In this document: one piece after another, positions 961 through 61,170 of the stretch
How positions within the stretch are numbered: the stretch's first letter is position 1
Layout of the letters: each line of letters begins with the position of its first letter
Assembly: GCA_030265305.1 (NCBI GenBank)
Contig: JASAOG010000079.1
Span: forward strand, 365,331 to 429,330
DNA: 64,000 bases
Direction of reading: 5' to 3'
Source of the DNA: Biomphalaria pfeifferi
Lineage: Eukaryota
Program-made: the position numbers and the translations under genes
Notes under the pieces: generated by a model
What the model saw: the letters and a program-made list of their open reading frames with translations, nothing else
Databases searched by the model: none
What the model was told of the DNA's origin: nothing

Positions 961-1009
961 TTCTTTGTTTACTTTTTGACATTGCACTTGCTGAAATACT
1001 TGCTGAAAG

Positions 1010-5509: not shown

Positions 5510-5618
5510 CTGTAAAAATAAAACAATTGAACAAAGGTGGACAATTGAGCAAAGGTGGACAAGTGAATAAATGCAATTAGGGCATAACTGACTTTAAAGT
5601 AAAGATAAAAACACTGAC

Positions 5619-14394: not shown

Positions 14395-14760
14395 TTTCCT
14401 TGTCATGCTTTGTTTCCTGTTGTAATGTCATGCTTTGTTGCCTGTTCTAATGTCATACTTTGTTTCCTGTTCTAATGTCATGCTTTGTTTCCTGTTCTAA
14501 TGCCATGCTTTGTTTGCTGTTGTAATGCCATGCTTTGTTTCCTGTTCTAATGCCATGCTTTATTACCAGTTGTAATGTCATGCTTGGTTTCCTGTTGTAA
14601 TGTCATGCTTTGTTTTCTGTTCTAATGCCATGCTTTGTTTCCTGTTGTAATGTCATGCTTTGTTTCCTGTTCTAATGCCATGCTTTGTTTCCTGTTGTAA
14701 TGTCATGCTTTGTTTCCTGTTGTAATGTCATGCTTTGTTTCCTGTTCTAATGCCATGCTA
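14395..14760. repeat. 25-bp tandem repeat (tgtcatgctttgtttcctgttgtaa)n, ~14 copies
   Basis: Directly visible. Confidence 0.9.
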
Positions 14761-21175: not shown

Positions 21176-22445
21176 GATAAGAAATTTCCTTACATTGTCA
21201 TGTTAACCTAAACCTAACTAAAAAGTTCCTTACATCGTCATGTTGACCTAAACTTAACTAAAAGTTCCTTACATCGTCATGTTGACCTAAACATAACTAA
21301 AAAGTTCCTTACATCGTCATGTTGACCTAAACTTAATTAAAAAGTTCCTTACATCGTCATTTTGACCTAAACTTAACTAAAATTTCCTTACATCGTCATG
21401 TTGACCTAAACCTAACTAAAAAGTTCCTTACATCGTCATGTTGACTTAAACTTAACTAAAAGTTCCTTACATCGTCATGTTGACCTAAACCTAACTAAAA
21501 AGTTCATTACATCGTCATGTTGACCTAAACTTAACTAAAAAGTTCCTAACATCGTCATGTTGACCTAAACTTAACTAAAAAGTTCCTTACATCGTCATGT
21601 TGACCTAAACTTAACTAAAAAGTTCCTTACATCGTCATGTTGACCTAAGCTTAACTAAAAGTTCCTTACATACATCGTCATGTTGACCTAAACCTAACTA
21701 AAAAGTTCCTTACATCGTCATGTTGACCTAAACTTAACTAAAAAGTACCTTATATCGTCATGTTGACCTAACCTTAACTAAAAGTTCCTTACATCGTCAT
21801 GTTGACCTAAACCTTACTAAAAAGTTCCTTACATCGTCATGTTGACCTAAACTTAAATAAAAGTTCCTTACATCGTCATGTTGACCTAAACTTAACTAAA
21901 AGTTCCTTACATCGTCATGTTGACCTAAACCTAACTAAAAAGTTCATTACATCGTCATGTTGACCTAAACTTAACTAAAAAGTTCCTAACATCGTCATGT
22001 TGACCTAAACTTAACTAAAAAGTTCCTTACATCGTCATGTTGACCTAAACTTAACTAAAAAGTTCCTTACATACATCGTCATGTTGACCTAAACCTAACT
22101 AAAAAGTTCCTTACATCGTCATGTTGACCTAAACTTAACTAAAAAGTACCTTATATCGTCATGTTGACCTAACCTTAACTAAAAGTTCCTTACATCGTCA
22201 TGTTGACCTAAACCTTACTAAAAAGTTCCTTACATCGTCATGTTGACCTAAACTTAAATAAAAGTTTCTTACATCGTCATGTTGACCTAAACTTTAAAAA
22301 AAAATTCCTTACATCGTCATGTTGACCTAAACTTAAATAAAAGTTTCTTACATCGTCATGTTGACCTAAACCTTAAAAAAAATTCCTTACATCGTCATGT
22401 TGACCTAAACTTAACTAAGAAGATCCTTACATCGTCATGTTGACC
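21176..22445. repeat. 40-bp satellite (aagttccttacatcgtcatgttgacctaaacttaactaaa)n, ~31 copies
   Basis: Directly visible tandem array with point variants. Confidence 0.95.
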
Positions 22446-22574
22446 TACCATGAAAGTCAATTCTTTTTATTTTCCGCCACACGCTATTGTCACACTTCCT
22501 GAAAGACAAACAGAATGTACACATGGATGTCATATTCAAAGATCTCTAAACCTAGTCAATTGAACTGTAACTTA

Positions 22575-24574: not shown

Positions 24575-25752
24575 AAGTAAAGATAATAGTGAACAAATAG
24601 ATGCTATCTTACTAGATTTTTCTAAGGCTTTTGACAAAGTTCACCACCATAGTTGGCTTAAAAAATTAAAATATTTCGGCATTAATGGTCCACTGCATCA
24701 GTGGATTAAAGATTTTCTGATAGAGAGAGAACAAACTGTAATAATAAATGGCTCTAAATCAACACCAATAACAGTAAACTCAGGTGTACCTCAAGGAACA
24801 GTCTTGGGTCCACTACTATTTTTAATTTACATAAATGATTTACCAAATTGCATTAGTTCAGGAACAAAAGTCAGATTATTTGCAGACGATTGCATAATAT
24901 ATAGAACAATAAAAACAAAACAAGACACAGATACTTTACAAAGAGAATTAGATGAATTACAGAAATGGGAATCAAATTGGAGCATGTCTTTCCACCCAGA
25001 AAAATGTCAGTTGTTAAGAGTAACAAAAAAACTAAAACAAATTAATTCCACTTATCTTATTCATGGCAAACCAGTAACACAGACTAAAAACGCAAAATAC
25101 CTAGGTGTTATAATAAATGAAAAACTGTCATGGAATCCACATATTGATGAAACTATAAAAAAATCAAACAAAGCATTAGGATTTATTAAAAGAAATTTCT
25201 ATAAATCAAATAAGAACATAAAACTAAAATGTTATTTAACCTTGGCTAGGCCAATAATAGAATATGCATCCACCGTGTGGGACCCCTCAACTCAAGAAAA
25301 CATTAAGAAACTGGAACAAACACAAAATAGAGTAGTGAGATTCATAACAAACGAATATTCACATTTGACTAGGGTAACACCTATAGTAAAATCACTAAAT
25401 TTAGAAAGCCTTCAGGACAGAAGACTCAAAAGTAAAGTAGCAATTATACATAAAACACTGAACCATAATCTTCAAATACAAAAACAAAATTTAATAAAAT
25501 ACTCTGAAAGACACAAAAATAAAGGCACATTCCTCGTCCCATATGCTAGGACAAATTTGTACAAATACTCCTTCTTCCCTAGTGCTATTAGAGCATGGAA
25601 TGGGTTGCCTGAGCTAGCCAGAAAAACCAGTGACTTGGCAGAATTTAAGTCATTGGTTAATATGCATGACTAAATGCATGACGCGTAGGACGTAATCATC
25701 TTTTTCTTTTGAAGTAATGTCTGTATTATATAAGATAAGATAAGATAAATTG
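24575..25752 (+). mobile_element. LINE family Y, 5'-truncated copy with open RT C-terminal ORF
   Basis: ORF 24804-25673 (LDFSKAFDKV.., FADDCIIY, ..YSFFPSAIRAWNGLPE). Conserved 3' UTR and (TAAGA)n-like tail. Confidence 0.85.
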
Positions 25753-27639: not shown

Positions 27640-30316
27640 AGAACTTAGACTTAGAAATTTTATTAGAATGTGAGAAACCAGACATAATTGCAGGAAAAGA
27701 AACTTGGCTACATCCTGAAATTTATAATGCAGAAATTTTCAATAGTAATTATGAAATTTTTAGAAAAAATAGGGCTGATAATCATGGAGGAGTTCTTCTA
27801 GTAATAAAAAACACTCTTATAGCAGAAGAAATTACCTTACCTAACTCAAAAAATATAGAATCAACATTTTGTAAAATTAATACCACCTCAACATCCCTAA
27901 TAATAGGCAGCATTTACAGACCACCAAATTCTAGTTTAGAATATATGCAGGAACTATGTAATCAGATTACTACACTTAAAGAGACAAATACAAATGCAGT
28001 TTTTTGGATTATGGGTGATTTCAACCTACCTGATATAAATTGGAAAACACTAACCATAGATAAACACCAAAACCTTAAGGACATAAATGAACTTTTCATA
28101 GAAACTTAACACAACCTAAGTTTAGATCAAATCATTAAAAAGCCAACTAGATTAAACAACACATTAGATCTCTTCTTAACCAAAAGACCTGGATTAGTAG
28201 TTGATTATGATATTATCCCTGGTCTATCAGACCATGAGATCATAGAAATACACAGTCCCAATTCAAAACCCAAAAGAAAAATCTTACTCAGGAATAAATG
28301 TAACCTAACACAACTACACCAAGCTGCATTAAACTTTCAAGAAACATTCTTATTAGAAAAAGACATTAACCAACCAGTTGTTGACCTCTGGAATTTCATT
28401 AAAAACCATCTTAAAAGCATTATAGAAAATCATATACCAACTAAATACATATCAAACATAATAAATAAATGCTGGTTTAATAATAGACTAAAGAAGCTTT
28501 GTAAACAGAAGGAAAACCTATATAGAAAATTTAAAGAAACTAAGGCAGAAAGAGTTTACAAAAAGTATATAAAAATTAAACACTTAACCCAAAAAGTAAG
28601 CAGACAGCTGCAGAGTGAATACATAAACAATGTAATATCTAAAGATAACAACAAAAACCTATGGTCATACATTAAGTCTAAGAAAATGGAAACAACAGGC
28701 ATAGCGCCATTAAAAGATGAACATAACAGAGTACATAATGATAATGAAACTAAAGCAAACATTCTAAACAAATACTTTGCATCAGCATTCTCAGCCCCAG
28801 GAGACAAAGACATATTACTGAATTTGAACCAAGTAGACAACATGGAAGATATAGTAGTACAAGAAAATGGAATTCAAAAACTATTAGCCAACACCAAACC
28901 AAATAAAGCATCTGGACCTGATGGTATTCCAGCTAGATTACTCAAAGAACTAAGCAATGAGCTAGCGCCAGTGTTCAAAATACTCTTTCAGGCTTCACTT
29001 AACCAGGGCAGAGTACCAAAGGACTGGAAAGAAGCTAATGTCACATTTAAAAAAGGAGAAAGATCTGACCCAGGAAACTACAGACCAGTATCACTTACCA
29101 GCATCACATGTAAAATCCTAGAACACATAACATGTTGCAACATCATAAACCACTTAGACAAACAAAATGTCCTCACACCATACCAACATGGCTTTAGGAA
29201 ATATAGATCATGTGAAACACAACTAATAGGATTAATTGATGATTTTTCTAAAGGTTTTGATAATAGTGAACAAATAGATGCATCAGTGGATTAAAGATTT
29301 TCTGATAGGGAGAGAACAAACTGTAATAATAAATGGCTCTAAATCAACACCGATAACAGTAAACTCAGGTGTACCTAAAGGAACAGTCTTGGGTCCACTA
29401 CTATTTTTAATTTACATAAATGATTTACCAAATTGCATTAGTTCAGGAACAAAAGTCAGATTATTTGCAGACGATTGCATAATATATAGAACAATAAAAA
29501 CAAAACAAGACACAGATACTTTACAAAGAGAATTAGATGAATTACAGAAATGGGAATCTAATTGGAGCATGTCTTTCCACCCAGAAAAATGACAGTTGTT
29601 AAGAGTAACAAAAAAACTAAAACAAGTTAATTCCACTTAACTTATTCATGGCAAACCAGTAACACAGACTAAAAACGCAAAATACCTAGGTGTTATAATA
29701 AATGAAAAACTGTCATGGAATCCACATATTGATGAAACTATAAAAAAATCAAACAAAGTATTAGGTTTTATAAAAAGAAATTTCTATAAATCAAATATGA
29801 ACATAAAACTAAAATGTTATTTAACCATGGTTAGGCCAATAATAGAATATGCATCCACCGTGTGGGACCCCTCAACTCAAGAAAACATTAAGAAACTGGA
29901 ACAGACACAAAATAGAGCAGTGAGATTCATAACAAATGAATATTCACATTTGACTAGAGTAACACCTATAGTAAAATCACTAAATTTAGAAAGCCTTCAG
30001 GACAGAAGACTCAAAAGTAAAGTAGCAATTATACATAACACACTGAACCATAATCTTCAAATACAAAAACAAAATTTAATAAAATACTCTGAAAGACACA
30101 AAGATAAAGGCACATTCCTCGTCCCATGTGCTAGGACAAATTTGTAGAAATACTCCTTCTTCCCTAGTGCTATTAGAGCATTGAATGGGTTGCCTGAGCT
30201 AGCCAGGAAAACTAGTGACTTGGCAGAATTTAAGTCATTGGTTAATATGCATGACTAAATGCATGACGCTTAGGACGTAATCATCTTCTTTTTTGAAGTA
30301 ACGTCTTTATTATATA
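27640..30316 (+). mobile_element. APE-type non-LTR retrotransposon (LINE family Y), near full-length degenerate copy (EN + RT)
   Basis: EN motifs (GKETWL, NYEIFRKNR..GGVLLVIKN, IYRPPNS, GDFNLPDINW). RT motifs (DFSKGFD, FADD, VPKGTVLGPLLF). Stops and frameshifts present, plus a ~100-bp internal deletion near 29280 relative to the copy at 24575. 3' end conserved; tail ataagataagataag. Confidence 0.8.
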
Positions 30317-37700: not shown

Positions 37701-37867
37701 ACCTGGTCTTAATTTTTGACATGCTCCACCAATGTACTTGTCATGAATTAGCGGAGAGTCAAATCCAACAGTTATAAAGATCTCAATATTACTATCACGC
37801 CTGATGAACAAATCCAAGACGGGAAAAGCCAGAACTATACTGTCACTGAGCACATCAAAGTTGACGT
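37701..37867 (-). CDS. mucin/VWF-like gene exon (VWD domain part; 1-nt start, ends phase 1)
   Basis: Acceptor tcctttcgcag and donor gtaaat. Encodes ...NFDVLSDSIVLAFPVLDLFIRRDSNIEIFITVGFDSPLIHDKYIGGACQKLRPG. Exactly one exon must intervene before the next confident exon for phases to fit. Confidence 0.55.
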
Positions 37868-38129
37868 CTGCGAAAGGAAGGAAAAAAAAAAGATTTTCCA
37901 CAAGATAAACGATAAGACTAATAGAAGACTAATAGAAGACTAATAGAAGAATTTCAACTTGAGATGTCATTTTGTAAATGGAAAACAAAACCTTCATTAT
38001 AATTAGACACAATTGTTCATGCATGGTGGAAAGCTTAGTGCAAGATAAACATTTACTGTAATTAATAGTAATAGGAATAGACTTCAATACATTCTAACTA
38101 CATTTGAACTGTTAACCAGCTGTATTTGA

Positions 38130-38495
38130 AATGACATTAACTGTGTATTCAAGCACTAAATTTGAATCGTATTATATTTGATCTGAAATTAGTGTGTATT
38201 CAAGCACTACATTTGAACTGATCATTAGCCTGTGCATTCAAGCACTGCATTTGAACTGATCATTAGCAGAGTATTCAAGCACTACATTTGAACTGATCAT
38301 TAGCAGAGTATTCAAGCACTACATTTGAACTGATCATTAGCAGAGTATTCAAGCACTACATTTGAGCTGATTATTAGCAGAGTATTCAAGCACTATATTT
38401 GAACTGATATTAGCAGTGTATTCAAGAACTACATTTGAGCTGATCATTAGCAGAGTATTCAAGCACTACATTTGAGCTGATCATTAGCAGAGTAT
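38130..38495. repeat. ~36-bp satellite (gtattcaagcactacatttgaactgatcattagcaga)n, left part of the array split by the LTR element
   Basis: ~10 tandem copies; the same satellite resumes at 45367. Confidence 0.9.
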
Positions 38496-39190
38496 TGTCA
38501 CGTATTACAAATTGAATTCTACTTTTAAATGGCTTGCCTAGGGGAACGTGACAATAGAAAAAGGTAGTTGTGTCACTTATCTTAAGTCTGAATTTAATCA
38601 GAGACTTACAATGAATAAAAAAAAAATATGACACAAGAAATCGGAAGGTAAAATATCAACTTAATGTTTAATCATAATATAACTCAATACAAAATGGAAG
38701 GGTTGACCAAAACCCTTTTACAAAAATGGCATGTAAAAATATTACAATACAATAGTTTGAAAATATAATTACAAATACAAGCAAGGCCTTGAAAAAAGAA
38801 AAATCTACACGATCAATTGGTATACCACGCACGGGTCACGCAATGTCTCCGCTATTCTGTCTCACGGCTGTCTCCGTATGTCTGTCCGTCAACGTAACGC
38901 GAGCGGTCTTTATATAATCTACCGCGCGTCGATATCGAGTAATTTCTAGAACAGAAAGTCATCAACACCCAGATCTAGAACGCTCTTCAAAGAGACAGAA
39001 GAAAAGAAAAAAAAAACCACCCTCCTTTCAACCAGAGGTACACAGATAGGTCAAGGACCGGTCACTGTCTGTGTGGCTTGACTCTTGAAGAATAAAATAA
39101 AAAAAAACTTATTACACAAAGGGGCAGACAACCTACAGGTCAAGAAAAAAAAACAATAGTATCTAGGCATTGTTACCTAGATACGTAACA
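38496..39190 (-). repeat. 3' LTR of the Gmr1-like element
   Basis: Direct repeat of 44673-45366; preceded on the element strand by the polypurine tract. Confidence 0.9.
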
Positions 39191-39206
39191 CCTCCCTCCT
39201 AAAAAT
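39191..39206 (-). promoter_or_regulatory. Polypurine tract (AGGAGGGAGG) immediately upstream of the 3' LTR
   Basis: Reverse complement of cctccctcctaaaaat abutting the LTR start TGTTACG. Confidence 0.7.
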
Positions 39207-39327
39207 AAAAAGTTTACATTTCCACGAAATGGAAATCTTTTTAGAATAATTACAAAAATGATATTTACATTACAGAATGTATTTATCATGATATATATAA
39301 AAAAAAATATATACATCAAAATACTTT

Positions 39328-42300
39328 TTACAATCTAGATAAGGCATCGGCGATAACATTTTCGCTGCCTTTTATGTGTTTAAGATCTAGGTTGTACTCT
39401 TGTAAAAATAAACTCCACCTGAGAAGTCGTTGATTCTTGCCAGACATTTTGTGGATAAATGTAAGGGGATTGTGGTCAGTAAATACAACCAGTGGCCATC
39501 TGGACCCACTGATATAAAGATCAAAGTGTTGTATAGAAAGAATCAACCCAAGACATTCTTTTTCCACAGTAGAATAATTTCTTTGATGTCTATTAAATTT
39601 CTTGGAAAAGAAACAAATAGGATGCTCTACTTGGAAATTATCTTCTTGGTAAAGGACTGACCCAACACCTGTGTCACTGGCGTCAATAGCTAACCTAAAA
39701 GGTTTTCCGAAATCAGGAGCCATCAAAATGGGGGAGCTAGATAATATCTGCTTAATTTGGTTAAAGGCTTTCTGACATTCATCCGTCCAAGTAAATCGGA
39801 CGTTCTTTCTCAGGAGGTTTGTTAAAGGACTGGCAATGACAGAAAAATTTTCGCAAAATTTTCTATAATATCCAGACATTCCCAAAAATCTTCGGAGTTG
39901 TTTCCGATCAGCAGGAATAGGGAAAGCTTGGATAGCTTCTACTTTGGCCATTACAGGTTTCACCTGGCCTTGTCCTACAATATGGCCTAAGTATTGGATG
40001 GAAGCCTGGCAAAAATCACTCTTACTCAGGTTTACAGTAATTTTTGCATGTAAAAGTTTAGTAAAAAGACAATGCAGTTGTTTACAATGGCTAGAAAAAT
40101 CTTGGCTAAAAATTACTACATCGTCTATGTATGCGTGGCAATTCTCCATGTCAGCAAGCAGGGCATTTATCATTCTCTGGAAAGTGGCAGGAGCATTCTT
40201 CATGCCAAATGGCATCACTTTGTATTGGTACAGACCATCAGGGGTGACAAAGGCGGAGATTTCCTTTGCCCTATCAGTCAGGGGAACCTGCCAATAACCT
40301 GAAAGTAGGTCTATTTTGGTGAAGTACTTAGCTTCACCAATACGATCTATGAGATCGTCTATCCTAGGGATAGGAAACGAATCGGTCTTTGTTACAGCAT
40401 TTACCTTACGGTAGTCTGTACAAAAACGATAAGTCTTGTCCTGTTTAGGTATCAAGACACATGGGGAGCTCCAGCTACTGGAACTTGGTTCAATGAGGTC
40501 ATTTTCAAGCATATACTTGATTTCTGACCTAAGTATGGCAAGTTTTTCAGGGTTGACCCTGTAAGGATGCTGCTTGACTGGAGTAGCCTCGCCAACATCT
40601 ACATCATGCATTATAACATTAGTCTGTTTTGGTACATCAGAAAAAATGTCATTAAATTCATTAATGAGTTTCATGATAACTGGCCTTTCTGTCGAAGACA
40701 GATGAGACAGTTTTACATCCAAATTCTGTAATACAAAAGAATTAGGTATTTTGTATTGTCCAAATTTCTCCTTTACAATATCATCATCAATAGGAGAAAC
40801 ATGGCTATTTGAACAACTTTTGACTGTATTTAAAACACAATTACTCTTCTCTGAGTGATCTGGCCGAGATACATAAGGCTTCAGCATGTTTATGTGACAT
40901 AGCTGAGTCTTTTTCCTACGGTCAGGAGTTTTGATTGTGTAATTGAGGTCACTAATTTTGGTCTCAATTTCATAGGGACCAAAATATCTGGCTTGCAAGG
41001 GTTGACCTGGTATGGGCAAAAATACAAGCACCTGATCCCCGGGAGAAAATTCTCTAACACGGGCCTTTCTATCATACCAGCGTTTCATGCTGGATTGGGT
41101 GTTTTGTAAGTTATTTTTGGCCAGAACACAAGCATCATAAAGTCTAGTTTTAAACTTACTTACATAGTCTAAAAGTCCTTCAGTGGCTGTTGGTGACAAC
41201 AAAGTCTCTTTTATACATTTCAAGGGACCGCGCACCGAATGGCCAAAGACTAAGTCAAAAGGGCTGAATCCCAACGATTCCTGGACGGATTCACGGGTTG
41301 CAAACAGCAGCATGTGGATTCCTTCGTCCCAGTCTTTTTCGTGCTCAAAGCAATAGGTTCGGATCATGTTCTTGAGAGTCTGATGGAATCGCTCAAGAGC
41401 GCCTTGCGACTCGGCATGATACGCACTCGACATGCAGTGTTTGATGCCCAACTGAGTCATGATTTGCTTGAAAAGATTGGCCGTGAAATTCGTTCCTTGG
41501 TCCGATTGGATGGACTTTGGTAGACCAAATAGAGTAAAGAACTTGATTAAGGCCTTTACAATGTTCGATGCTTTTATGTTCCTTAGAGGAATAGCCTCAG
41601 GAAAACGAGTTGAAGCACACATAATGGTCAACAGGTATTGGTTGCCAGCTTTTGTCCTTGGGAGAGGACCAACACAGTCAATAAGTACTCTGCTGAAAGG
41701 TTCTTCAAAGGCTGGAATCGGCTTCAGAGGAGCAACAGGGATCTTTTGATTTGGCTTGCCAACCATCTGACAGGCATGACAGGATCGGCAGTACTGGATG
41801 ACATCTTTCTTCAAACGTGGCCAGAAGAAGTGTGACATAATCTTGTGATATGTCTTGTGGATGCCGAGATGACCTGACATTGGTGTGTCATGAGCCAGAT
41901 TCATGATGTACGCTCGGTATCTTTCTGGTAACACGATTTGATGGCATATTCTCCATTCTTCTTCGTTGGATGCGTCTGGAGGTTTCCATTTCCTGAAGAG
42001 CATATCATCTTGGATGTAGTAGCACGTTGATGCTAGCTCTGCCTCTTGTGATGTCATTGCGGTTTCTCGGAGTTTGGCGAGCTCTGGATCCTTCTTTTGG
42101 TCCTCAATCAACTGTTTTCGAGTTGATGCCGGCTTTTCAGAATTTGGCGTTGGTTCTTCTTCAAGAGAAGCAAAGAATGTGGTGCTCAAGTCCACATCAT
42201 CGTGGTTACTGTTGGCCTTGATGACGTTCTCTTCTTGAGATGCTTTCAACCTCATTGCCCTTGTTACTGCACACGCTGGATATAACTCTAGGTCTTCCTC

Positions 42301-44406
42301 GGGTGTGGCAGATAAGTCGGGTTTTTGAGTGACGATGGGTTCGGCTATCACCTTTCCACCTGCTAAGTCATTGCCTAACAGCAACGAGATGCCTTCCAAT
42401 GGTAATGTTGGTCGGACACCTACAACAACCGGTCCAGTAATGAGATTTGACTTTATGTCGATTAGATGTAGAGGCACATCTATACATCCAAGCTCTACGC
42501 CTCGTAACAGGATGCTCTTCCCAGTCGATGATGATTTTGACAAGGGCAAGATACCCTCTAAAAGTAGCGATTGTGAGGCACCTGTGTCTCTCAAAATGGT
42601 GATAGGTCGTAGACTTGTAGAATCACCGGGTAGTGATACGAATCCTTCCGAAATGAAAGGCTTAAAATCCTCTAATAAAACATCAATTTTGGTTGATGCA
42701 GACTGGACTTGGGTCGAACTCTCGCTGGAGTCATTGACATCTCTAGGAGACGCAGTGGAGAAACTCTTTCTTGAGTCAGTAGAACATCTTTTGGATGTAT
42801 TTGGAGAACTCTTGATGGAGTCATTGGAACATCGGGGTGATGTTTTATGGGAACTCTTGATAGAGTCATGGGAACATCGGGGTGATGTATTATGGGAACT
42901 CTGGATAGAGTCATTGGAACATCGGGGTGATGTATTATGGGAACTCTGGATAGAGTCATTGGAACATCGGGGTGATGTATTATGGGAACTCTGGATAGAG
43001 TCATTGGAACATCGGCTTGATGTATTATGGGAACTCTGGATAGAGTCATTGGAACATCGCTGTGATGTACTAGGTAAACTCTTGTTTGAGTCATTGGAAC
43101 ATCGGCTTGATGTCTTTGAAAAACTCTTGATTGAGTCAATGGAACATCGTAAAGATGAATTTGAAAAACTCTTGTTTGAGTCATTGGAACATCGGCTTGA
43201 TGTATTTGAAAAACTCTTGTTTGAGTCATTGGAACATCGTGGAGACATTTTCGGAGAGTCTTGTACAGTCAATACATTTGAAACAGGTGGTGTCGAGGTA
43301 TTCTTGATATGACTTGATGATGAGGGAGTAAACCTCGCCGACCACTGTACTGTGCAAGCGCTGACTTTTGAAGGAGCTTTTTCGTTTCTCTTCCTCAATT
43401 TCCAGCAATCGTCAATTTTATGGCCTTCTCGTTTGCAGTAGGAACAAGTAGCTTTACTTGTAGTAGGTTTTCTGTCGTTTGTACTGCTGTTCTTGATGGA
43501 GTTGCTAGCAGTGGACTCAGGCTGTTTGACTTGTTTTGGCTTGACATCCGTCGTATACTTGGCAAATTGTTGTGATATTATATAATCGTCTGCCAACACT
43601 GCAGCCTTGTGCACATCTTCCTCGCCACGATCAGCTATATGCGTACGGACGTCCAGCCGCACACAACTCTTGAACTCTTCCATCAGCATTAGGTTCTTGA
43701 ATTTGGCAAAGTCGGTGCCGATTTCCTTGGAAGTGAGCCATTTTTCAAAGCGTCGCTCCTTTTCCCGCAGGAATTCTACATGGGTTTGGCCATCCGATTT
43801 GCGACAATCCCTGAACTGCTTTCGGTAAGCTTCCGGAACAAGTTCATATGCCTTAAGAATTAAGGCCTTAACAACATTATAATCTTTTTGTTGTTCAATG
43901 GTCAAAGAACAAAATACCTCTGCAGCTCTACCAGTCAAAACTGTTTGCAGCAAAGTGGGCCACAAAGTTTCAGGTACATTAAAATTTTTCACAGCAAGTT
44001 CAAATTGTGGAAAATAATTGTCAATTGTGGCTTCATTAAAGCGTGGAATTATTTTCAAAAATTTTGTTGCTTCAGCAGTATGACTGGCAGGGGAAGAATC
44101 TGGTCTTACATTAGCAGCTAACTCTAATTTTCTTAACTCTATTTGTAATTTCATTTCCTTCTCTTTTAAAGCTAACTGGGCTTCTATTTCCATTTGTTTT
44201 AATTTTATCTGAAGTTCTAAATCTGATTTACCCTCATCAGGTCTAAGGGTTTCTAAAAGGTCTTCAGAAAACACTTCCTCGTCTACATAATGGATTACAA
44301 TGTTATCTCTGATTTCTTGTTTAAGGGCATTTGATTTTATTTTTAACCCTAAATGTTTAGAAATAAGGACCAGTTCCTTCCTAGTACAAGCATCAAGCTC
44401 TTCCAC
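39328..44406 (-). CDS. gag-pol polyprotein of the LTR retrotransposon
   Basis: In order: gag CCHC knuckle CSYCKREGHKIDDC; Ser-rich repeats; protease LRDTGASQS; integrase HHCC (HLGIHKTYH...CRSCHACQ), DDE core (LIDCVGPLP, SDQGTNF) and GPY/F (ARYFGPYEI); RT (FGMKNAPATFQRMIN, YIDDVVIFS); RNase H (DASDTGVGSV, TDHNPL, ADALSRL). Integrase lies upstream of RT. Confidence 0.9.
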   Translation of the reverse strand: MEELDACTRKELVLISKHLGLKIKSNALKQEIRDNIVIHYVDEEVFSEDLLETLRPDEGKSDLELQIKLKQMEIEAQLALKEKEMKLQIELRKLELAANVRPDSSPASHTAEATKFLKIIPRFNEATIDNYFPQFELAVKNFNVPETLWPTLLQTVLTGRAAEVFCSLTIEQQKDYNVVKALILKAYELVPEAYRKQFRDCRKSDGQTHVEFLREKERRFEKWLTSKEIGTDFAKFKNLMLMEEFKSCVRLDVRTHIADRGEEDVHKAAVLADDYIISQQFAKYTTDVKPKQVKQPESTASNSIKNSSTNDRKPTTSKATCSYCKREGHKIDDCWKLRKRNEKAPSKVSACTVQWSARFTPSSSSHIKNTSTPPVSNVLTVQDSPKMSPRCSNDSNKSFSNTSSRCSNDSNKSFSNSSLRCSIDSIKSFSKTSSRCSNDSNKSLPSTSQRCSNDSIQSSHNTSSRCSNDSIQSSHNTSPRCSNDSIQSSHNTSPRCSNDSIQSSHNTSPRCSHDSIKSSHKTSPRCSNDSIKSSPNTSKRCSTDSRKSFSTASPRDVNDSSESSTQVQSASTKIDVLLEDFKPFISEGFVSLPGDSTSLRPITILRDTGASQSLLLEGILPLSKSSSTGKSILLRGVELGCIDVPLHLIDIKSNLITGPVVVGVRPTLPLEGISLLLGNDLAGGKVIAEPIVTQKPDLSATPEEDLELYPACAVTRAMRLKASQEENVIKANSNHDDVDLSTTFFASLEEEPTPNSEKPASTRKQLIEDQKKDPELAKLRETAMTSQEAELASTCYYIQDDMLFRKWKPPDASNEEEWRICHQIVLPERYRAYIMNLAHDTPMSGHLGIHKTYHKIMSHFFWPRLKKDVIQYCRSCHACQMVGKPNQKIPVAPLKPIPAFEEPFSRVLIDCVGPLPRTKAGNQYLLTIMCASTRFPEAIPLRNIKASNIVKALIKFFTLFGLPKSIQSDQGTNFTANLFKQIMTQLGIKHCMSSAYHAESQGALERFHQTLKNMIRTYCFEHEKDWDEGIHMLLFATRESVQESLGFSPFDLVFGHSVRGPLKCIKETLLSPTATEGLLDYVSKFKTRLYDACVLAKNNLQNTQSSMKRWYDRKARVREFSPGDQVLVFLPIPGQPLQARYFGPYEIETKISDLNYTIKTPDRRKKTQLCHINMLKPYVSRPDHSEKSNCVLNTVKSCSNSHVSPIDDDIVKEKFGQYKIPNSFVLQNLDVKLSHLSSTERPVIMKLINEFNDIFSDVPKQTNVIMHDVDVGEATPVKQHPYRVNPEKLAILRSEIKYMLENDLIEPSSSSWSSPCVLIPKQDKTYRFCTDYRKVNAVTKTDSFPIPRIDDLIDRIGEAKYFTKIDLLSGYWQVPLTDRAKEISAFVTPDGLYQYKVMPFGMKNAPATFQRMINALLADMENCHAYIDDVVIFSQDFSSHCKQLHCLFTKLLHAKITVNLSKSDFCQASIQYLGHIVGQGQVKPVMAKVEAIQAFPIPADRKQLRRFLGMSGYYRKFCENFSVIASPLTNLLRKNVRFTWTDECQKAFNQIKQILSSSPILMAPDFGKPFRLAIDASDTGVGSVLYQEDNFQVEHPICFFSKKFNRHQRNYSTVEKECLGLILSIQHFDLYISGSRWPLVVFTDHNPLTFIHKMSGKNQRLLRWSLFLQEYNLDLKHIKGSENVIADALSRL
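42780..43270 (-). repeat. 48-bp in-frame tandem repeats (~11 copies) inside the gag-pol ORF
   Basis: Encodes SSRCSNDSNKSFSNT-like 16-aa units between the NC zinc knuckle and protease. The plus-strand ORF 42329-43312 is its antisense shadow. Confidence 0.85.
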
Positions 44407-44645
44407 AGAGGGATTTGCAAGAAAAACCTGAATATCTATGACTAACTAACAACTATTACAAGCAAAAAAATGTATACAATGTAAATATACAGTACAAAAT
44501 CAGTACAACAAAAAAACCTTAAGAGAGTTTGGTCAATACTATTGATACTTTACTTCCGACTCTTTGACACAAAAAAAATTTTTGTTAAAGTCAACTTCGC
44601 CTTTACAAAATTACTCAAGTAAGACGAAAATAGGTTCAGAAAAAT

Positions 44646-44663
44646 ATCCCGGACGAGCCCCCA
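44646..44663 (-). promoter_or_regulatory. Primer binding site complementary to the 3' end of tRNA-Pro (TGGGGGCTCGTCCGGGAT)
   Basis: On the element strand, 9 nt downstream of the 5' LTR end, the 18-mer TGGGGGCTCGTCCGGGAT is complementary to ...ATCCCGGACGAGCCCCCA, the canonical tRNA-Pro 3' end. The identical PBS is used by murine leukaemia virus. Confidence 0.75.
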
Positions 44664-44672
44664 AACTTCTTT

Positions 44673-45366
44673 TGTCACGTATTACAAATTGAATTCTACT
44701 TTTAAATGGCTTGCCTAGGGGAACGTGACAATAGAAAAAGGTAGTTGTGTCACTTATCTTAAGTCTGAATTTAATCAGAGACTTACAATGAATAAAAAAA
44801 AATATGACACAAGAAATCGGAAGGTAAAATATCAACTTAATGTTTAATCATAATATAACTCAATACAAAATGGAAGGGTTGACCAAAACCCTTTTACAAA
44901 AATGGCATGTAAAAATATTACAATACAATAGTTTGAAAATATAATTACAAATACAAGCAAGGCCTTGAAAAAAGAAAAATCTACACGATCAATTGGTATA
45001 CCACGCACGGGTCACGCAATGTCTCCGCTATTCTGTCTCACGGCTGTCTCCGTATGTCTGTCCGTCAACGTAACGCGAGCGGTCTTTATATAATCTACCG
45101 CGCGTCGATATCGAGTAATTTCTAGAACAGAAAGTCATCAACACCCAGATCTAGAACGCTCTTCAAAGAGACAGAAGAAAAGAAAAAAAAAACCACCCTC
45201 CTTTCAACCAGAGGTACACAGATAGGTCAAGGACCGGTCACTGTCTGTGTGGCTTGACTCTTGAAGAATAAAATAAAAAAAAACTTATTACACAAAGGGG
45301 CAGACAACCTACAGGTCAAGAAAAAAAAACAATAGTATCTAGGCATTGTTACCTAGATACGTAACA
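44673..45366 (-). repeat. 5' LTR of the Gmr1-like element
   Basis: Direct repeat of 38496-39190; TG..CA ends; followed on the element strand by the PBS. Confidence 0.9.
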
Positions 45367-45665
45367 GTATTCAAGCACTAGATTTGAACTGATATTAGCA
45401 GTGTATTCAAGCACTACATTGGAACTGATATTAGCGGTGTATTCAAGCACTACATTTGAACTGAATTAGCGGTGTATTCAAGCACTACATTTGAACTGAT
45501 ATTAGCGGTGTATTCAAGCACTACATTTGAGCTGATCATTAGCAGTGTATTCAAGCACTACATTTGAGCTGATATTAGCAGTGTGTTCAAGCACTACATT
45601 TGAGCTGATATTATCAGTGTATTCTAGCACTACATTTGAACTGATATTAGTGGTGTATTCAAGCA
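45367..45665. repeat. Same ~36-bp satellite, right part
   Basis: Array continues exactly where the left part stopped once the element and one GTAT copy are removed. Confidence 0.9.
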
Positions 45666-46072
45666 CTACACATGAATCCCACTTTCAGTGCGTCTTATAC
45701 GAACAGCAGATGAAAAAAACAACAACGTATAACATTTACTTAATTGTTCCAATAGTATACTCATTATTATGCTTAGTTATTTCACTTCGTGTTTTAGGTT
45801 GATCGTACGAAGTCTTGGGTTTAAAACTTTTAGGAAGTAATTCTACATTTTAATGGTATGACACAAATGGAAACATTTAGAATGAATAAGAGTTAGGTGT
45901 GTCATATAAAGGGGACGTTTTTTTTTAAATAATAGCAAAATGCGCCTGGTAAAATAGCTGGATAGAATTATATATTTTAAAACACACTAAAAACAACTAC
46001 AAAGATAAAAACAACTAACAAAAACAATGTAACAATTGAAATACACATAAAAAGAGAGAAATCAAAAGAAAC

Positions 46073-46213
46073 CTCCAATTTTCTCCACATGGTCCAGATG
46101 TTGAGAAAACAAAACAGACTTCACCGTATAGTTCATATTAGTTGAAGTCATTGCGATGGACTCATCATCCACCTGGTAGACACGCTCTCTGGAGATATGA
46201 TGAACACGAAGAC
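46073..46213 (-). CDS. candidate additional upstream exon (VWD-like); coordinates approximate
   Basis: Acceptor ttccctacag. Encodes GLRVHHISRERVYQVDDESIAMTSTNMNYTVKSVLFSQHLDHVEKIG. Its phase link to the exon at 37867 is not resolved. Confidence 0.3.
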
Positions 46214-46504
46214 CCTGTAGGGAAATGAATTAGATGGAATAAATAAAAGTGGATTAGAATTGATAAAGTGAAATATGATTAATTTCATGTAGTCGAAATG
46301 TTGGGAAACATAGAATGGATATCAGATAATATAGATTGCTTAAAGAGGAAAGATAAAGGTGTTGAGTTTATGGGGTATAGCGATAGTAATAAATAAATAA
46401 ACATATTGGATAAAAGCCTTTATAAGAGTGAATAGCAGAATGGAATGTGGAATTGATTCTTTGAGGGGATAAAAGTTGGAAATTAGATGCAAATTTATTA
46501 AATA

Positions 46505-46795
46505 TAGAAGGCGCGGTGGCTTGTGGTAAAGCGCTTGGCTTCCGAAACGGGTGTTCCGGGATCGAATTCTTGTGTCTACTGGGATATTTACTTTCGGAAT
46601 CTGTAGGGCGCCTCTGAGTCCACCCTTCTCTAATGGGTACCTGACATTAGTTGGGGAATGGTAAAAGCGTTGGTCGTTGTGCTGACCACATGACACCCTC
46701 GTTAATCGTGGGTCACAGAGTCGGATGACCTTGACATCATCTGCTCCATAGATCACAAGATCTGAAAGAGGATTTATTTTTTTTTTACTTATTGA
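46505..46795 (+). mobile_element. tRNA-derived SINE family A, full-length copy
   Basis: tRNA-like head ggcgcggtggcttgtggtaaagcgcttggcttccgaaac..gggatcgaattc; body ..ctaatgggtacctgac..ggtcgttgtgctgaccacatgacaccctcgttaa..catctgctccatagatcacaagatctgaaag. Confidence 0.75.
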
Positions 46796-46924
46796 ATAGA
46801 AATGTACGTGGTGAATATAGTAGATTATATTTTTAGGACTGGATATAAGGTCGGATAGAGTAATGGCTCTATAGTTTTGTTTTCGTTATGGCAATGTGTT
46901 TAGGAGTTTGATTTTGTTTTTTTT

Positions 46925-47100
46925 TAATGTTTCGGATGTTTCTTCAGAGTTAAAGATAACCTACTTCCTAGTCCAAACCTCCCGCAGGACGACGGGGGAT
47001 GACAGCGGGCAGGGACCAGGTTATGAACCCGAGACCACCAAGACAACCGAACGACAGTCCATCGGGCATACCGCACGACCAGGCAGCCATCCAAGATTTC
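46925..47100 (-). mobile_element. SINE family B copy (minus)
   Basis: Reverse complement of tgtttcggatgtttcttcagagttaaagataacctacttcctagtccaaacctcccgcaggacgacggggga..ggttatgaacccgag... Confidence 0.65.
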
Positions 47101-47596
47101 CTTCTAGCCCTTATGACTCAGAATGGTTTACTTTATTCTGTGTTGGATTACCTTATAGCATTTTGACGTCTCATTGCTACAATGCGTCCAGCTGTCAATC
47201 TTGATGTTGTCCAGTTCTAACAGTGTGATATTACAAGACACAGAAAAAGGCTGGTACACGGCTCCCAGGAAAGTCTGAACAGTGCATAGGGCACCAGCCC
47301 TGCAAGTCAGGTATGGGCCTAGCAGTTGAGACTGACTCATTGGAGAAGGCTGCACTGAAGATTTAAGTACGACCATTTAGGTTTTATTAAAAAATGGAAG
47401 AGCAGAGCTGTTAAGTAAACCTTTAGAATTACGTAAGAAATGTGTGTTTTTGTTAGCTCAAAGTCTACTACAGTAAATGTGTATGTGTGTGTAAAGTGTC
47501 GAATGTGTTGAAAAACATCTCTCTAATTTATAATGTAATGACGTTTCTGTCATGTTGCGATGGTAATCTTAATAATCCAGACGACATGTTATTTAC

Positions 47597-53587: not shown

Positions 53588-56500
53588 AATGGCTTCTTTG
53601 TATAGTCACTAATAGGCTTCTTTGTATAGTCACTATAATGGCTTCTTTGTATAGTCACTATAATGGCTTCTTTGTAAAGTCACTATAATGGCTTCTTTGT
53701 ATAGTCACTATAATGGCTTCTTTGTATAGTCACTATAATGGCTTCTTTGTATAGTCACTATAATGGCTTCTTTGTAAAGTCACTATAATGGCTTCTTTGT
53801 ATAGTCACTATAATGGCTTCTTTGTAAAGTCACTATAATGGCTTCTTTGTAAAGTCACTATAATGGCTTCTTTGTATAGTCACTATAATGGCTTCTTTGT
53901 AAAGTCACTATAATGGCTTCTTTGTAAAGTCACTATAATGGCTTCTTTGTATAGTCACTATAATGGCTTCTTTGTAAAGTCACTATAATGGCTTCTTTGT
54001 AAAGTCACTATAATGGCTTCTTTGTATAGTCACTATAATGGCTTCTTTGTATAGTCACTATAATGGCTTCTTTGTATAGTCACTATAATGGCTTCTTTGT
54101 AAAGTCACTATAATGGCTTCTTTGTAAAGTCACTATAATGGCTTCTTTGTATAGTCACTATAATGGCTTCTTTGTAAAGTCACTATAATGGCTTCTTTGT
54201 AAAGTCACTATAATGGCTTCTTTGTATAGTCACTATAATGGCTTCTTTGTAAAGTCACTATAATGGCTTCTTTGTATAGTCACTATAATGGCTTCTTTGT
54301 ATAGTCACTATAATGGCTTCTTTGTATAGTCACTATAATGGCTTCTTTGTAAAGTCACTATAATGGCTTCTTTGTATAGTCACTATAATGGCTTCTTTGT
54401 AAAGTCACTATAATGGCTTCTTTGTATAGTCACTATAATGGCTTCTTTGTATAGTCACTATAATGGCTTCTTTGTAAAGTCACTATAATGGCTTCTTTGT
54501 AAAGTCACTATAATGGCTTCTTTGTATAGTCACTATAATGGCTTCTTTGTAAAGTCACTATAGTGGCTTCTTTGTATAGTTACTATAATGGCTTCTTTGT
54601 AAAGTCATAATAATGGCTTCTTTGTAAAGTCACTATAATGGCTTCTTTGTATAGTCACTATAATGGCTTCTTTGTATAGTCACTATATATAGTCACTATA
54701 ATGGCTTCTTTGTATAGTCACTATAATGGCTTCTTTGTATAGTCACTATAATGGCTTCTTTGTATAGTCACTTTAATGGCTTCTTTGTATAGTCACTATA
54801 ATGGCTTCTTTGTATAGTCACTATAATGGCTTCTTTGTATAGTCACTATAATGGCTTCTTTGTATAGTCACTATTGTGGCTTCTTTGTATAGTCACTATA
54901 ATAGCTTCTTTTTGTAGTCACTATAATAGCTTGTATAGTCACTATAATGGCTTCTTTGTATAGTCACTATAATGGCTTCTTTGTAAAGTCACTATAATGG
55001 CTTCTTTGTATAGTCACTATAATGGCTTCTTTGTATAGTCACTATAATGGCTTCTTTGTATAGTCACTATAATGGCTTCTTTGTATAGTCACTATAATGG
55101 CTTCTTTGTATAGTCACTATAATGGCTTGTATAGTCACTATAATGGCTTCTTTGTATAGTCACTATTGTGGCTTCTTTGTAAAGTCACTAAATGGCTTCT
55201 TTGTATAGTCACTATAATGGCTTGTATAGTCACTATAATGGCTTCTTTGTATAGTCACTATAATAGCTTCTTTGTATAGTCACTATAATGGCTTGTATAG
55301 TCACTATAATGGCTTCTTTGTATAGTCACTATAATAGCTTCTTTGTATAGTCACTATAATGGCTTGTATAGTCACTATAATGGCTTCTTTGTATAGTCAC
55401 TATAATGGCTTCTTTGTATAGTCACTATAATGGCTTCTTTGTATAGTCACTATAATGGCTTCTTTGTATAGTCACTATAATGGCTTCTTTGTAAAGTCAC
55501 TATAATGGCTTCTTTGTAAAGTCACTATAATGGCTTCTTTGTATAGTCACTATAATGGCTTCTTTGTATAGTCACTATAATGGCTTCTTTGTATAGTCAC
55601 TAAATGGCTTCTTTGTATAGTCACTATAATGGCTTCTTTGTATAGTCACTATAATGGCTTCTTTGTAAAGTCACTATAATGGCTTCTTTGTAAAGTCACT
55701 ATAATGGCTTCTTTGTATAGTCACTTTAATGGCTTCTTTGTATAGTCACTATAATGGCTTCTTTGTATAGTCACTATAATGGCTTCTTTGTATAGTCACT
55801 ATAATGGCTTCTTTGTATAGTCACTATAATGGCTTCTTTGTATAGTCACTATAATGGCTTCTTTGTATAGTCACTATAATGGCTTCTTTGTATAGTCACT
55901 ATAATGGCTTCTTTGTATAGTCACTATAATGTCTTCTTTGTATAGTCACTATAATGGCTTCTTTGTATAGTCACTATAATGGCTTCTTTGTATAGTCACT
56001 ATAATGGCTTCTTTGTATAGTCACTATATATAGTCACTATAATGGCTTCTTTGTATAGTCACTATAATGGCTTCTTTGTATAGTCACTATAATGGCTTCT
56101 TTGTATAGTCACTATAATGGCTTCTTTGTATAGTCACTATAATGGCTTCTTTGTATAGTCACTATAATGGCTTCTTTGTATAGTCACTATAATGGCTTCT
56201 TTGTATAGTCACTATAATGGCTTCTTTGTATAGTCACTATAATGGCTTCTTTGTATAGTCACTATAATGGCTTCTTTGTATAGTCACTATATATAGTCAC
56301 TATAATGGCTTCTTTGTATAGTCACTATAATGGCTTCTTTGTATAGTCACTATAATGGCTTCTTTGTATAGTCACTATAATGGCTTCTTTGTATAGTCAC
56401 TATAATGGCTTCTTTGTATAGTCACTATAATGGCTTCTTTGTATAGTCACTTTAATGGCTTCTTTGTATAGTCACTATAATGGCTTCTTTGTATAGTCAC

Positions 56501-57662
56501 TATAATGGCTTCTTTGTATAGTCACTATAATGGCTTCTTTGTATAGTCACTATTGTGGCTTCTTTGTATAGTCACTATAATAGCTTCTTTTTGTAGTCAC
56601 TATAATAGCTTGTATAGTCACTATAATGGCTTCTTTGTATAGTCACTATAATGGCTTCTTTGTAAAGTCACTATAATGGCTTCTTTGTATAGTCACTATA
56701 ATGGCTTCTTTGTATAGTCACTATAATGGCTTCTTTGTATAGTCACTATAATGGCTTCTTTGTATAGTCACTATAATGGCTTCTTTGTATAGTCACTATA
56801 ATGGCTTGTATAGTCACTATAATGGCTTCTTTGTATAGTCACTATTGTGGCTTCTTTGTATAGTCACTAAATGGCTTCTTTGTATAGTCACTATAATGGC
56901 TTGTATAGTCACTATAATGGCTTCTTTGTATAGTCACTATAATAGCTTCTTTGTATAGTCACTATAATGGCTTGTATAGTCACTATAATGGCTTCTTTGT
57001 ATAGTCACTATAATAGCTTCTTTGTATAGTCACTATAATGGCTTGTATAGTCACTATAATGGCTTCTTTGTATAGTCACTATAAAGGCTTCTTTGTATAG
57101 TCACTATAATAGCTTCTTTTTATAGTCACTATAATTGCTTCTTTGTATAGTCACTATTGTGGCTTCTTTGTATAGTCACTATAATGGCTTGTATAGTCAC
57201 TATAATGGCTTCTTTGTATAGTCACTATAATAGCTTCTTTGTATAGTCACTATAATGGCTTGTATAGTCACTATAATGGCTTCTTTGTATAGTCACTATA
57301 ATAGCTTCTTTGTATAGTCACTATAATGGCTTGTATAGTCACTATAATGGCTTCTTTGTATAGTCACTATAAAGGCTTCTTTGTATAGTCACTATAATAG
57401 CTTCTTTTTATAGTCACTATAATTGCTTCTTTGTATAGTCACTATTGTGGCTTCTTTGTATAGTCACTTAATGGCTTGTATAGTCACTATAATGGCTTCT
57501 TTGTAAAGTCACTATAATGGCTTCTTTGTAAAGTCACTATAATGGCTTCTTTGTATAGTCACTATAATTGCTTCTTTGTATAGTCACTATTGTGGCTTCT
57601 TTGTATAGTCACTTAATGGCTTGTATAGTCACTATAATGGCTTCTTTGTATAGTCACTATAA
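53588..57662. repeat. 25-bp satellite (ggcttctttgtatagtcactataat)n, ~160 copies, with variant units and higher-order blocks
   Basis: Directly visible. Variants include gtaaagt vs gtatagt, 18-bp short units (ggcttgtatagtcac), and cactattgtgg / cactatatatag units that recur in the same order in two ~1-kb blocks. Confidence 0.95.
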
Positions 57663-57769
57663 TGGTATCGGCTTAGGAACAACTCATTGCGATTTTCTAT
57701 CGACTCTAAAGAGATGCAGGCTAGGTCGTAGCAATCTTTCAAATGAATGATTTATTTAGCGTCTCTTTT

Positions 57770-60793: not shown

Positions 60794-60819
60794 ACTTCCC
60801 CCACGCCTTGTTATCATAC

Positions 60820-61170
60820 AATGGTGTCAGTGACATACAATGGTGTCAAGTGACATACAATGGTGTCAGCGACATACAATGGTGTCAGCGACATACAATG
60901 GTGTCAGTGACATACAATGGTGTCAGTGACATACAATGGTGTCAGTGACATACAATTGTGTCAGTGACATACAATGGTGTCAGTGACATACAATTGTGTC
61001 AGTGACATACAATGGTGTCAGTGACATACAATGGTACAATGGTGTCAGTGACATACAATGGTATCAGCGACATACATTGATGTCAACGACATGCATTGAT
61101 GTCAGTGACATACAATGATGTCAGTGACATACAATGATGTCAGCGATATACAATGGTGTCAGGAAACATT
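60820..61170. repeat. 21-bp tandem repeat (tgtcagtgacatacaatggtg)n, ~16 copies
   Basis: Directly visible, immediately right of the foldback-like element. Confidence 0.9.

Follow-up and report, generated by a model that had tools for sequence, protein, structure and literature searches.

The 64,000-nucleotide stretch of the Biomphalaria pfeifferi genome considered here (GenBank assembly GCA_030265305.1, contig JASAOG010000079.1, positions 365,331 to 429,330 of the forward strand) is referred to below as the window, and positions are given in its own numbering. On its minus strand lie exons of a mucin-like gene with VWD, C8 and TIL domains and, in the same orientation, a full-length retrotransposon of 6871 bp (38496-45366) bounded by long terminal repeats (LTRs). 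An earlier note, made from the DNA letters without database searches, had described this element as a young and intact Gmr1-like retrotransposon, that is, a Ty3/gypsy relative in which integrase (IN) is encoded upstream of reverse transcriptase (RT). We consider it highly probable that the element is indeed a new full-length member of the known Gmr1-like clade of Ty3/gypsy elements (Metaviridae), very recently inserted into a minisatellite within an intron. The copy appears structurally complete but probably impaired in translation, since the initiator ATG of its family is absent.

Structure of the element and its target site

The LTRs had been reported beforehand as near-identical direct repeats of about 695 bp. 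Direct alignment leaves a single A in a poly-A run near 38617 as their sole difference, with no substitutions and no substantial divergence. On the plus strand of the window they run TGTCACG...ACGTAACA, corresponding in element sense to TGTTACG...CGTGACA, and nine of 12 positions agree between the terminal inverted repeats. Because the LTRs are free of substitutions, the insertion appears to be very recent. Zero substitutions in 694 bp put divergence below about 0.0043 (95% upper bound), equivalent to an age below roughly 0.2, 0.4 or 2.2 million years if the neutral rate per site per year is assumed to be 1e-8, 5e-9 or 1e-9, respectively. The ratio of observed to expected CpG is 1.02 in the LTRs and 0.59 elsewhere in the window; the undepleted CpG of the LTRs is in keeping with a young insertion.

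Signals for the retrotransposon cycle can be read directly (Table 1). The 5' LTR contains TATATAA at sense positions 275-281 (45086-45092), set in a CpG-rich stretch around sense 250-370, and ATTAAA at sense 519 and 592; the limits of U3, R and U5 are putative placements only. The primer-binding site (PBS) is separated from the 5' LTR by the 9-nt spacer AAAGAAGTT and, as the earlier note had stated, its 18 nucleotides are identical to the tRNA-Pro PBS of murine leukaemia virus (MLV) (PMC1769482, PMC4587795). The polypurine tract (PPT) likewise directly adjoins the 3' LTR as had been noted. No tRNA gene, and hence no tRNA-Pro gene, was found in the window by ARAGORN.

One further candidate signal was considered and set aside. 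The sequence TTCTAGAAATTAC in the 5' LTR (45115-45127, sense 240-252), with a matching site in the 3' LTR, resembles a three-unit heat-shock element with one mismatch and lies about 23-35 bp upstream of the TATA box. A heat-inducible Gmr1/Osvaldo family acting through heat-shock elements has been described in the flatworm Macrostomum (PMC12801592). However, about 0.18 such sites per LTR are expected from their frequency in the window, so that the match is no evidence for a heat-shock element and may be due to chance.

A 4-bp target-site duplication (TSD), GTAT, is present at 38492-38495 and 45367-45370, and both flanks consist of the same minisatellite, with a period of 37, 8.1 copies and 92% matches on the left according to TRF. 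Within the window, matches to the minisatellite consensus are confined to these two flanks, with none expected by chance, and the array is small (about 16 units, about 0.6 kb in total). When the flanks are joined with one GTAT the reconstructed empty-site junction reads ...GCTGATCATTAGCAGAGTATTCAAGCACTAGATTTGAACTG... and the repeat phase is kept, with anchor spacings of 37, 37, 36, 37, 37, 36, 36, 35, 36 and 37. The claim that excision restores a perfect 36-bp unit therefore holds for phase but not for sequence: the restored unit bears one C>G variant (ACTAGATTT), and unit length is 36 or 37 bp. Searches of the window with the element using blastn and tblastn found no further copies or solo LTRs outside it.

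Between the LTRs runs a single frame, and the uninterrupted open reading frame (ORF) of 1692 residues predicted from the sequence is confirmed. Thirteen full-length relatives align colinearly with it, at 47-61% identity, and the invariant residues mentioned below refer to this alignment of 14 sequences. Comparison with Pfam and the PDB gives the order Gag (SCAN-like capsid, then CCHC nucleocapsid), protease (PR), IN, RT, RNase H (RH). This is the order originally read from the ORF, with the qualification that the protease is recognised by motif and fold and not by Pfam. The SCAN match in Gag scores 34.7 bits against a cut-off of 27 and is found in nearly all relatives too; Gag matched nothing among PDB sequences. 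Residues C321, C324, H329 and C334 of the zinc knuckle are invariant.

The protease region escaped Pfam even when searched in isolation at E ≤ 10, and a profile of 13 sequences was equally unproductive against PDB sequences. Residues D607 and G678-N-D-L-A682 are invariant, and an AlphaFold2 model of the region (predicted local distance difference test score 71.6, with a confident β core) matched aspartic peptidases only. These were the HIV-1, RSV, FIV, HTLV and foamy-virus proteases, Ddi1 and the lobes of pepsin, at E-values of 1.6e-3 to 3e-2 and probabilities of 0.95-1.0. The invariant DTGA motif and the modelled fold together support a predicted aspartic protease.

Integrase matches Integrase_H2C2 (4.8e-20), rve (1.4e-12) and Integrase_p58_C (3.9e-11) in Pfam, and its catalytic residues D910, D969 and E1005 are invariant, as are Y1426, D1428 and D1429 of RT and the acidic residues D1575, E1615, D1644 and D1687 of RNase H. 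The best PDB matches are to the yeast element Ty3 for both IN (7q5b residues 1087-1460, E = 1.1e-40) and RT/RH (4ol8, E = 3.4e-90), followed by caulimovirus, foamy-virus and MLV enzymes. The comparison shows the permutation directly: RT/RH and IN occupy residues 616-1008 and 1087-1460 of 7q5b, respectively, whereas here IN (about 822-1195) precedes RT/RH (about 1296-1691) and is not C-terminal to RNase H. The protein ends in ADALSRL, 137 bp before the PPT, and no further ORF, and thus no env, is found between the pol stop and the PPT.

Table 1. Coordinates of the retrotransposon, its coding regions, its flanks and the host intron
Feature	Position	Strand	Remarks
3' LTR (element sense)	38496-39190	-	695 bp; repeat finding and direct alignment
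5' LTR	44673-45366	-	694 bp; repeat finding and direct alignment
PBS TGGGGGCTCGTCCGGGAT	complement of 44646-44663	-	18-mer, read directly
PPT AGGAGGGAGG	39191-39200	-	directly adjoins 3' LTR; read directly
Left flank, 37-bp minisatellite, about 8 units	38196-38495	.	ends in target GTAT; TRF
Right flank, duplicate GTAT (45367-45370), then 36-bp minisatellite, about 8 units	45367-45670	.	
gag-pol ORF (listed)	39328-44406	-	1692 codons, no interruption; listed first codon GTG, not ATG
gag-pol frame, stop to stop	39331-44445	-	1705 sense codons, from TAG; stop TAA at 39328-39330
ATA (Ile) in the family's initiator-ATG position	44437-44439	-	window AGTCATAGATATTCAGG vs L001 AAAATGGATATCCAACA
First in-frame ATG	44191-44193	-	codon 72 of listed ORF; 83 codons past ATA
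SCAN-like capsid C-terminal domain of Gag	43576-43836	-	aa 191-277; Pfam SCAN PF02023, E = 1.5e-8
Nucleocapsid zinc knuckle CSYCKREGHKIDDC	43405-43446	-	CX2CX4HX4C, aa 321-334
In-frame 45-bp tandem repeat	42706-43245	-	12 units of 15 aa, within linker between nucleocapsid and PR
Predicted aspartic protease (retropepsin)	42337-42645	-	active site L-R-D607-T-G-A; LLGNDLAG motif
Integrase	40870-41928	-	aa 827-1179: H2C2 827-882; DDE core 902-997; GPY/F-SH3 C-terminal module 1136-1179
Reverse transcriptase	39976-40452	-	aa 1319-1477; YIDD box 1426-1429; Pfam RVT_1 8.5e-35
RNase H	39394-39789	-	aa 1540-1671; RT_RNaseH_2 6.7e-34, RT_RNaseH 7.5e-33
Host intron holding the element	37710-47352	-	including bounding exons 47352-47056 and 37871-37710; tblastn colinearity

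The start of gag-pol and the coding repeat

The start of gag-pol departs from that of the relatives. The gag-pol frame begins three codons past a TAG stop and reads L-V-I-D-I-Q-V-F-L-A-N-P-S-V-E-E-L, in which the I is encoded by ATA. The closest relative (L001, 67% identical) reads M-D-I-Q-H-F-K-E-N-P-S-L-E-E-L from a genuine ATG. Every one of the 21 relatives in which this N-terminal motif is kept has an ATG in frame, 9-15 codons ahead of the conserved proline (P[STD]). The window has none there, and its ATA stands at distance 9, exactly where L001 has its ATG. Ahead of the first in-frame ATG lie out-of-frame ATGs at 44393, 44330, 44288 and 44237, with ORFs of 14, 11, 1 and 6 codons. When examined as a coding-competent copy, therefore, the element has an open frame and all its catalytic residues but lacks the ATG at the head of gag.

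The change at 44437 turns G into A on the sense strand (ATGG>ATAG), within a GG dinucleotide. Substitutions of this kind are left by RT errors or by cytidine-deaminase editing of minus-strand cDNA. An RT error, editing and mutation after insertion cannot be told apart from a single site. A 28-mer spanning the start codon, its variable base given as N, had no exact match in the metagenome_contigs and viral_contigs databases and so yielded no other copy of the same family.

With no initiator ATG, the description of the copy as intact and potentially autonomous is overstated, although its youth, to judge from the LTRs, is upheld. Given the ATA, the copy is most likely poorly translated or not translated at all, and so dependent on proteins supplied by sibling copies; its mobilisation in trans could still occur. 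For annotators there is a general point here, namely that a long open frame and identical LTRs do not amount to autonomy when a single G>A has taken away the start codon.

Could the copy nevertheless be fully intact, autonomous and potentially active, its ATA being a mistaken base call or else a near-cognate codon that functions as a start? The invariant catalytic residues of PR, IN, RT and RH, the identical LTRs and the exact PBS are all as such a copy would have them, and the context of the ATA is good, with G at both -3 and +4. Near-cognate initiation is known in eukaryotes, but ATA is among the weakest of the near-cognate codons. Furthermore, the 21 relatives compared are unanimous in having ATG at this position, and a scanning ribosome would first encounter the out-of-frame AUGs and their short ORFs. 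On balance we regard a fully intact copy as unlikely, though worth bearing in mind.

The second peculiarity is the tandem repeat of 12 units of 15 residues between the nucleocapsid and the protease. Each unit follows the pattern S-x-R-C-S-N-D-S-x-x-S-x-x-x-T, and two central units have the same DNA. The linker that it occupies measures 284 residues against a family median of 83, making it the longest among the 111 sequences in which both bounding motifs were found. Its self-identity at period 15 is 0.50; the 11 linkers next to it in length, which were the only others tested, do not exceed 0.17. The repeat is missing from 12 of the 13 aligned relatives, and the closest relative has a serine-rich, non-repetitive spacer at its location. 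Most simply, then, this Ser/Cys-rich array is a lineage-private minisatellite expansion tolerated in a disordered linker. Two other ORFs overlap it, one of 327 codons at 42329-43312 (+) and one of 185 codons at 42672-43229 (-); both are by-products of a tandem repeat free of stops.

A more adventurous proposal would combine these peculiarities: in an active mollusc Gmr1-like family, the AUA start would throttle Gag-Pol, the array of 12 × 15 residues would be a selectable spacer module between nucleocapsid and PR, and the intronic insertion would be a segregating allele altering expression of the mucin-like gene. We think this improbable as a whole. Apart from the ATA start and the private repeat, the element is ordinary for its family.

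Relatives and clade membership

Among 5.8 billion protein clusters searched there were 609 matches, the most similar of them 67% identical to the element. The best 120 of the 609 were examined and proved to be full-length polyproteins of 46-67% identity with the same set of Pfam domains, SCAN included; their sources range over scallop, sponge, sea urchin, sawfish and many teleosts. The HHCC zinc motif of IN and the YxDD of RT were both located in 118 sequences, in 117 of which the former precedes the latter, and those relatives with an ADALSR motif all end shortly after its start (median 7 residues, maximum 20).

An exhaustive HMMER search with RT/RH gave 38 sequences in which IN lies directly upstream (median 494 bits), along with 57 of canonical RT-IN order (median 325 bits). 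In a neighbour-joining (NJ) tree of 105 RT/RH sequences, Ty3 among them, 44 integrase-first taxa including the window element form a clade with no canonical member, recovered in 159 of 200 bootstraps (80%). Ty3 and the 57 RT-first representatives fall outside it; the integrase-first elements with which the window element groups include those of sponge, scallop, sea urchin, sawfish and teleosts. The RT thus groups with Ty3/gypsy, as had been expected, and inside that group with integrase-first elements. Three apparently integrase-first sequences outside the clade (P0196, P0214 and P0268) were considered as a second, independent lineage and rejected, being gene models with two RTs. One of these chimeric models also includes a Tc1/mariner transposase, and such fusions can mimic the integrase-first order. 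Separately, one Gmr1-like polyprotein (P0074) carries the bacterium Breoghania sp. as its stated source and probably reflects eukaryotic contamination of a bacterial assembly.

The relatives share cis-acting traits as well. Of 82 related loci, 21 carry a tRNA-Pro PBS that departs from the 18-mer of the element at one position or none; the LTR end ahead of it is CGTAACA, TGTAACA or CGTGACA. Both the PBS and a CGT(A/G)ACA end are common to the family. The intervening spacer is mostly 4-5 nt (range 0-7, and one of 17). At the corresponding place, purine-rich PPTs adjoin LTR starts of the TGT... type, as in AAGGGGGGAGG|TGTTATG and GAAGAGGGGAGG|TGTGATG. Most metagenomic relatives end within their LTRs, and the only one with flanks (L002) shows no clear TSD. 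On one metagenome contig of 35.6 kb (WLWD01002486.1; L009, L011 and L044) full-length Gmr1-like copies follow one another head to tail. The contig aligns with itself over 5.9 kb at about 97% identity, with a shift of about 5.7-5.9 kb, which suggests a tandem array with shared LTRs.

The features found here match those by which the clade is known. Published accounts agree with the earlier note that Gmr1 was first described from cod and that IN upstream of RT defines the lineage (PMC6238403, PMC8220671, PMC3587641), and the series SCAN-PR-IN-RT/RH has been used as an operational signature of Gmr1-like elements (bioRxiv 10.1101/2025.03.03.638093). With the Atlantic cod Gmr1 and its Ciona and sea-urchin relatives the window element shares Ty3/gypsy-type RT, RH and IN, the upstream IN, a single gag-pol frame and the capsid's SCAN-like C-terminal domain. 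It differs in its mollusc host, the repeat of 12 × 15 residues, the 9-nt PBS spacer and the ATA initiator. Saugg1 of Sparus aurata has been described as having Gmr1-like structure, and the crustacean GyRex4/5 as the first protostome Gmr1-like elements (PMC3587641). A Sparus aurata polyprotein among our matches (P0059), from a distant host and possibly Saugg1 itself, is 47-50% identical over PR-IN-RT-RH and falls in the same NJ clade.

Ty3 of Saccharomyces cerevisiae (4ol8, 7q5b) is the closest element with solved RT/RH and IN. Catalytic motifs and the ADALSR end of RNase H are shared. Ty3 has the order PR-RT-RH-IN, keeps GAG3 and POL3 in separate frames and is primed by tRNA-iMet, unlike the PR-IN-RT-RH order, single frame and tRNA-Pro primer seen here. 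The order PR-IN-RT-RH is also that of copia elements (PMC6238403), but a Ty1/copia-type element is practically excluded: RT/RH and IN are both nearest to Ty3, the Pfam matches (RVT_1, RT_RNaseH and RT_RNaseH_2, Integrase_H2C2 and a GPY/F-type module) are the Ty3/gypsy set with no copia-type model among them, and the NJ tree nests the element among Ty3/gypsy representatives.

Chimeric gene models such as the three above raise the question of whether IN before RT might here be an artefact of nested or chimeric elements or of mis-assembly, but the chance of this is minimal. There is one uninterrupted frame with each domain present once, no second RT or IN fragment in 39191-44672, a single LTR pair with its TSD, end-to-end colinearity, at 47-67% identity, with relatives belonging to six animal phyla, and the same order, ending at ADALSR, in all but one of the 118 sequences.

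Equally hard to entertain is an endogenous retrovirus or errantivirus-like element with env, or a host gene domesticated through SCAN or GIN1-type co-option. The MLV-identical PBS and the SCAN match in Gag might be thought to point that way, as might the UniRef label 'Gypsy retrotransposon integrase-like protein 1' attached to fish relatives. Yet the 137 bp before the PPT leave no room for env, other internal ORFs are only those generated by the repeat, and LTRs, TSD, PBS and PPT mark a mobile insertion and not a gene. Although MLV shares the PBS 18-mer TGGGGGCTCGTCCGGGAT, its RT is a much weaker match than that of Ty3, and the shared PBS reflects the near-universal 3' end of tRNA-Pro, not kinship. 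Similarly, the match to the SCAN domain of vertebrate zinc-finger proteins is above the Pfam threshold, but here the domain still lies within the Gag of a mobile element and not in a host transcription factor. The vertebrate SCAN domain is reported to derive from a Gmr1-like capsid (bioRxiv 10.1101/2025.03.03.638093).

A recently inserted, structurally complete Gmr1-like element thus remains our preferred reading, and several points tell against it. Its place in the clade is predicted from architecture, the SCAN-like Gag and the 80% NJ clustering, in a tree that does not contain cod Gmr1 itself; for a grouping with that type element, and apart from the Osvaldo, Mag, CsRN1 and MolGy clades, the only indirect evidence is that the clade has teleost members. 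The recency of the insertion would stand or fall with the identity of the LTRs. The zinc knuckle reaches only E = 0.018 with Pfam zf-CCHC, below threshold, and the fold match of the protease is weak by E-value. The 9-nt spacer before the PBS is longer than the usual 4-5 nt, though not unique in that, and could reduce the efficiency of end processing. Finally, the ATA may be a sequencing or assembly error, or the near-cognate start of a sub-lineage, the searches having turned up no second copy of this family by which to decide.

Host gene and wider implications

The minus strand of the window contains exons with TIL, VWD, C8-like and LDLa-like segments, together with a Thr/Glu-rich exon of 15-residue repeats; downstream of the element TIL and VWD are recognised by Pfam. 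Three homologues of the host gene were found, the best coming from the snail Bulinus truncatus, a VWD/C8/TIL protein with 45% identity (E = 2.4e-105). In a tblastn comparison with this protein (P0121), residues 99-183 map to 47352-47056 and residues 202-255 to 37871-37710, both on the minus strand. As colinear exons are thus present on either side, the element lies inside an intron, in the sense orientation of the mucin-like gene. The intron measures about 9.2 kb (between 47056 and 37871), of which the element contributes 6.87 kb.

Other features of this gene and its surroundings can be mentioned briefly. At least 11 exon-like segments in 25817-50069 (-) are colinear with B. truncatus Btru_028333, at 35-65% identity per segment. 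The VWD/C8/TIL/LDLa exons of this gene run from 35377 down to 9071, and downstream of them is a 944-codon open frame, 5464-8298 (-), spanning a tandem array of about 45 copies of 45 bp at 5872-7888. Read on the minus strand, the array encodes Thr/Glu-rich units of 15 residues (TEEELTTTAKTIETT type) and looks like a mucin-type PTS exon. LINE-like (non-LTR) fragments occur at 27642-30144 (+), 24576-25670 (+), 700-1341 (+) and 13488-13754 (-), the first with an AP-endonuclease domain at 27642-28106 and RT at 28110-29291, and several copies of a conserved LINE-like 3' coding tail are scattered among the introns. The region is rich in minisatellites: arrays unrelated to the element are present at 53588-57665 (25 bp × 165, 4.1 kb), 21182-22447 (40 bp × 32), 14401-14759 (25 bp × 14) and 60815-61162 (19 bp × 18).

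The cycle of transcription, polyprotein cleavage, tRNA priming and integration is established for LTR retroelements generally, and the signals described above suggest how this element would follow it. Transcription would start in the 5' LTR, served by the TATA box at sense 275, with polyadenylation in the 3' LTR. A single Gag-Pol polyprotein would be cleaved by its own aspartic protease, and Gag, with its SCAN-like capsid and CCHC knuckle, would package the element RNA. Host tRNA-Pro annealed to the 18-nt PBS would prime minus-strand DNA and the PPT the plus strand, after which the DDE integrase would insert the DNA through a 4-bp staggered cut, giving rise to the GTAT duplication. The permuted PR-IN-RT-RH order of pol, a peculiarity of the clade, is present in this copy, which would have entered the 36/37-bp minisatellite in the intron of the mucin-like gene in the gene's own orientation. 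With cis signals and catalytic residues intact but an ATA start, any renewed mobilisation would depend on proteins from sibling copies.

Hosts in which Gmr1-like elements are on record include cod, tunicates, frogs, teleosts and turtles and, among protostomes, crustaceans since 2013 and then annelids and flatworms. A survey of LTR retrotransposons in 56 mollusc species lists five previously known Gypsy clades, and Gmr1 is not one of them (PMC6238403). A scallop protein with integrase-first architecture is already present in NCBI.

The absent initiator, the coding minisatellite and the sense-intronic position, all additions to what the earlier note had described, are useful details and not discoveries, and they leave current understanding unchallenged. 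The element nevertheless offers a clean and datable integrase-first specimen of the Gmr1-like type, in which the tRNA-Pro PBS, the PPT, the 4-bp TSD and the in-phase empty site can all be read. This mollusc copy adds to the recorded hosts of a clade that was initially believed to be confined to deuterostomes, and belongs to the lineage that was the source of the vertebrate SCAN domain. For the snail itself, a young, sense-oriented intronic insertion in a mucin-like gene could affect host transcripts, and may serve as a presence/absence marker.

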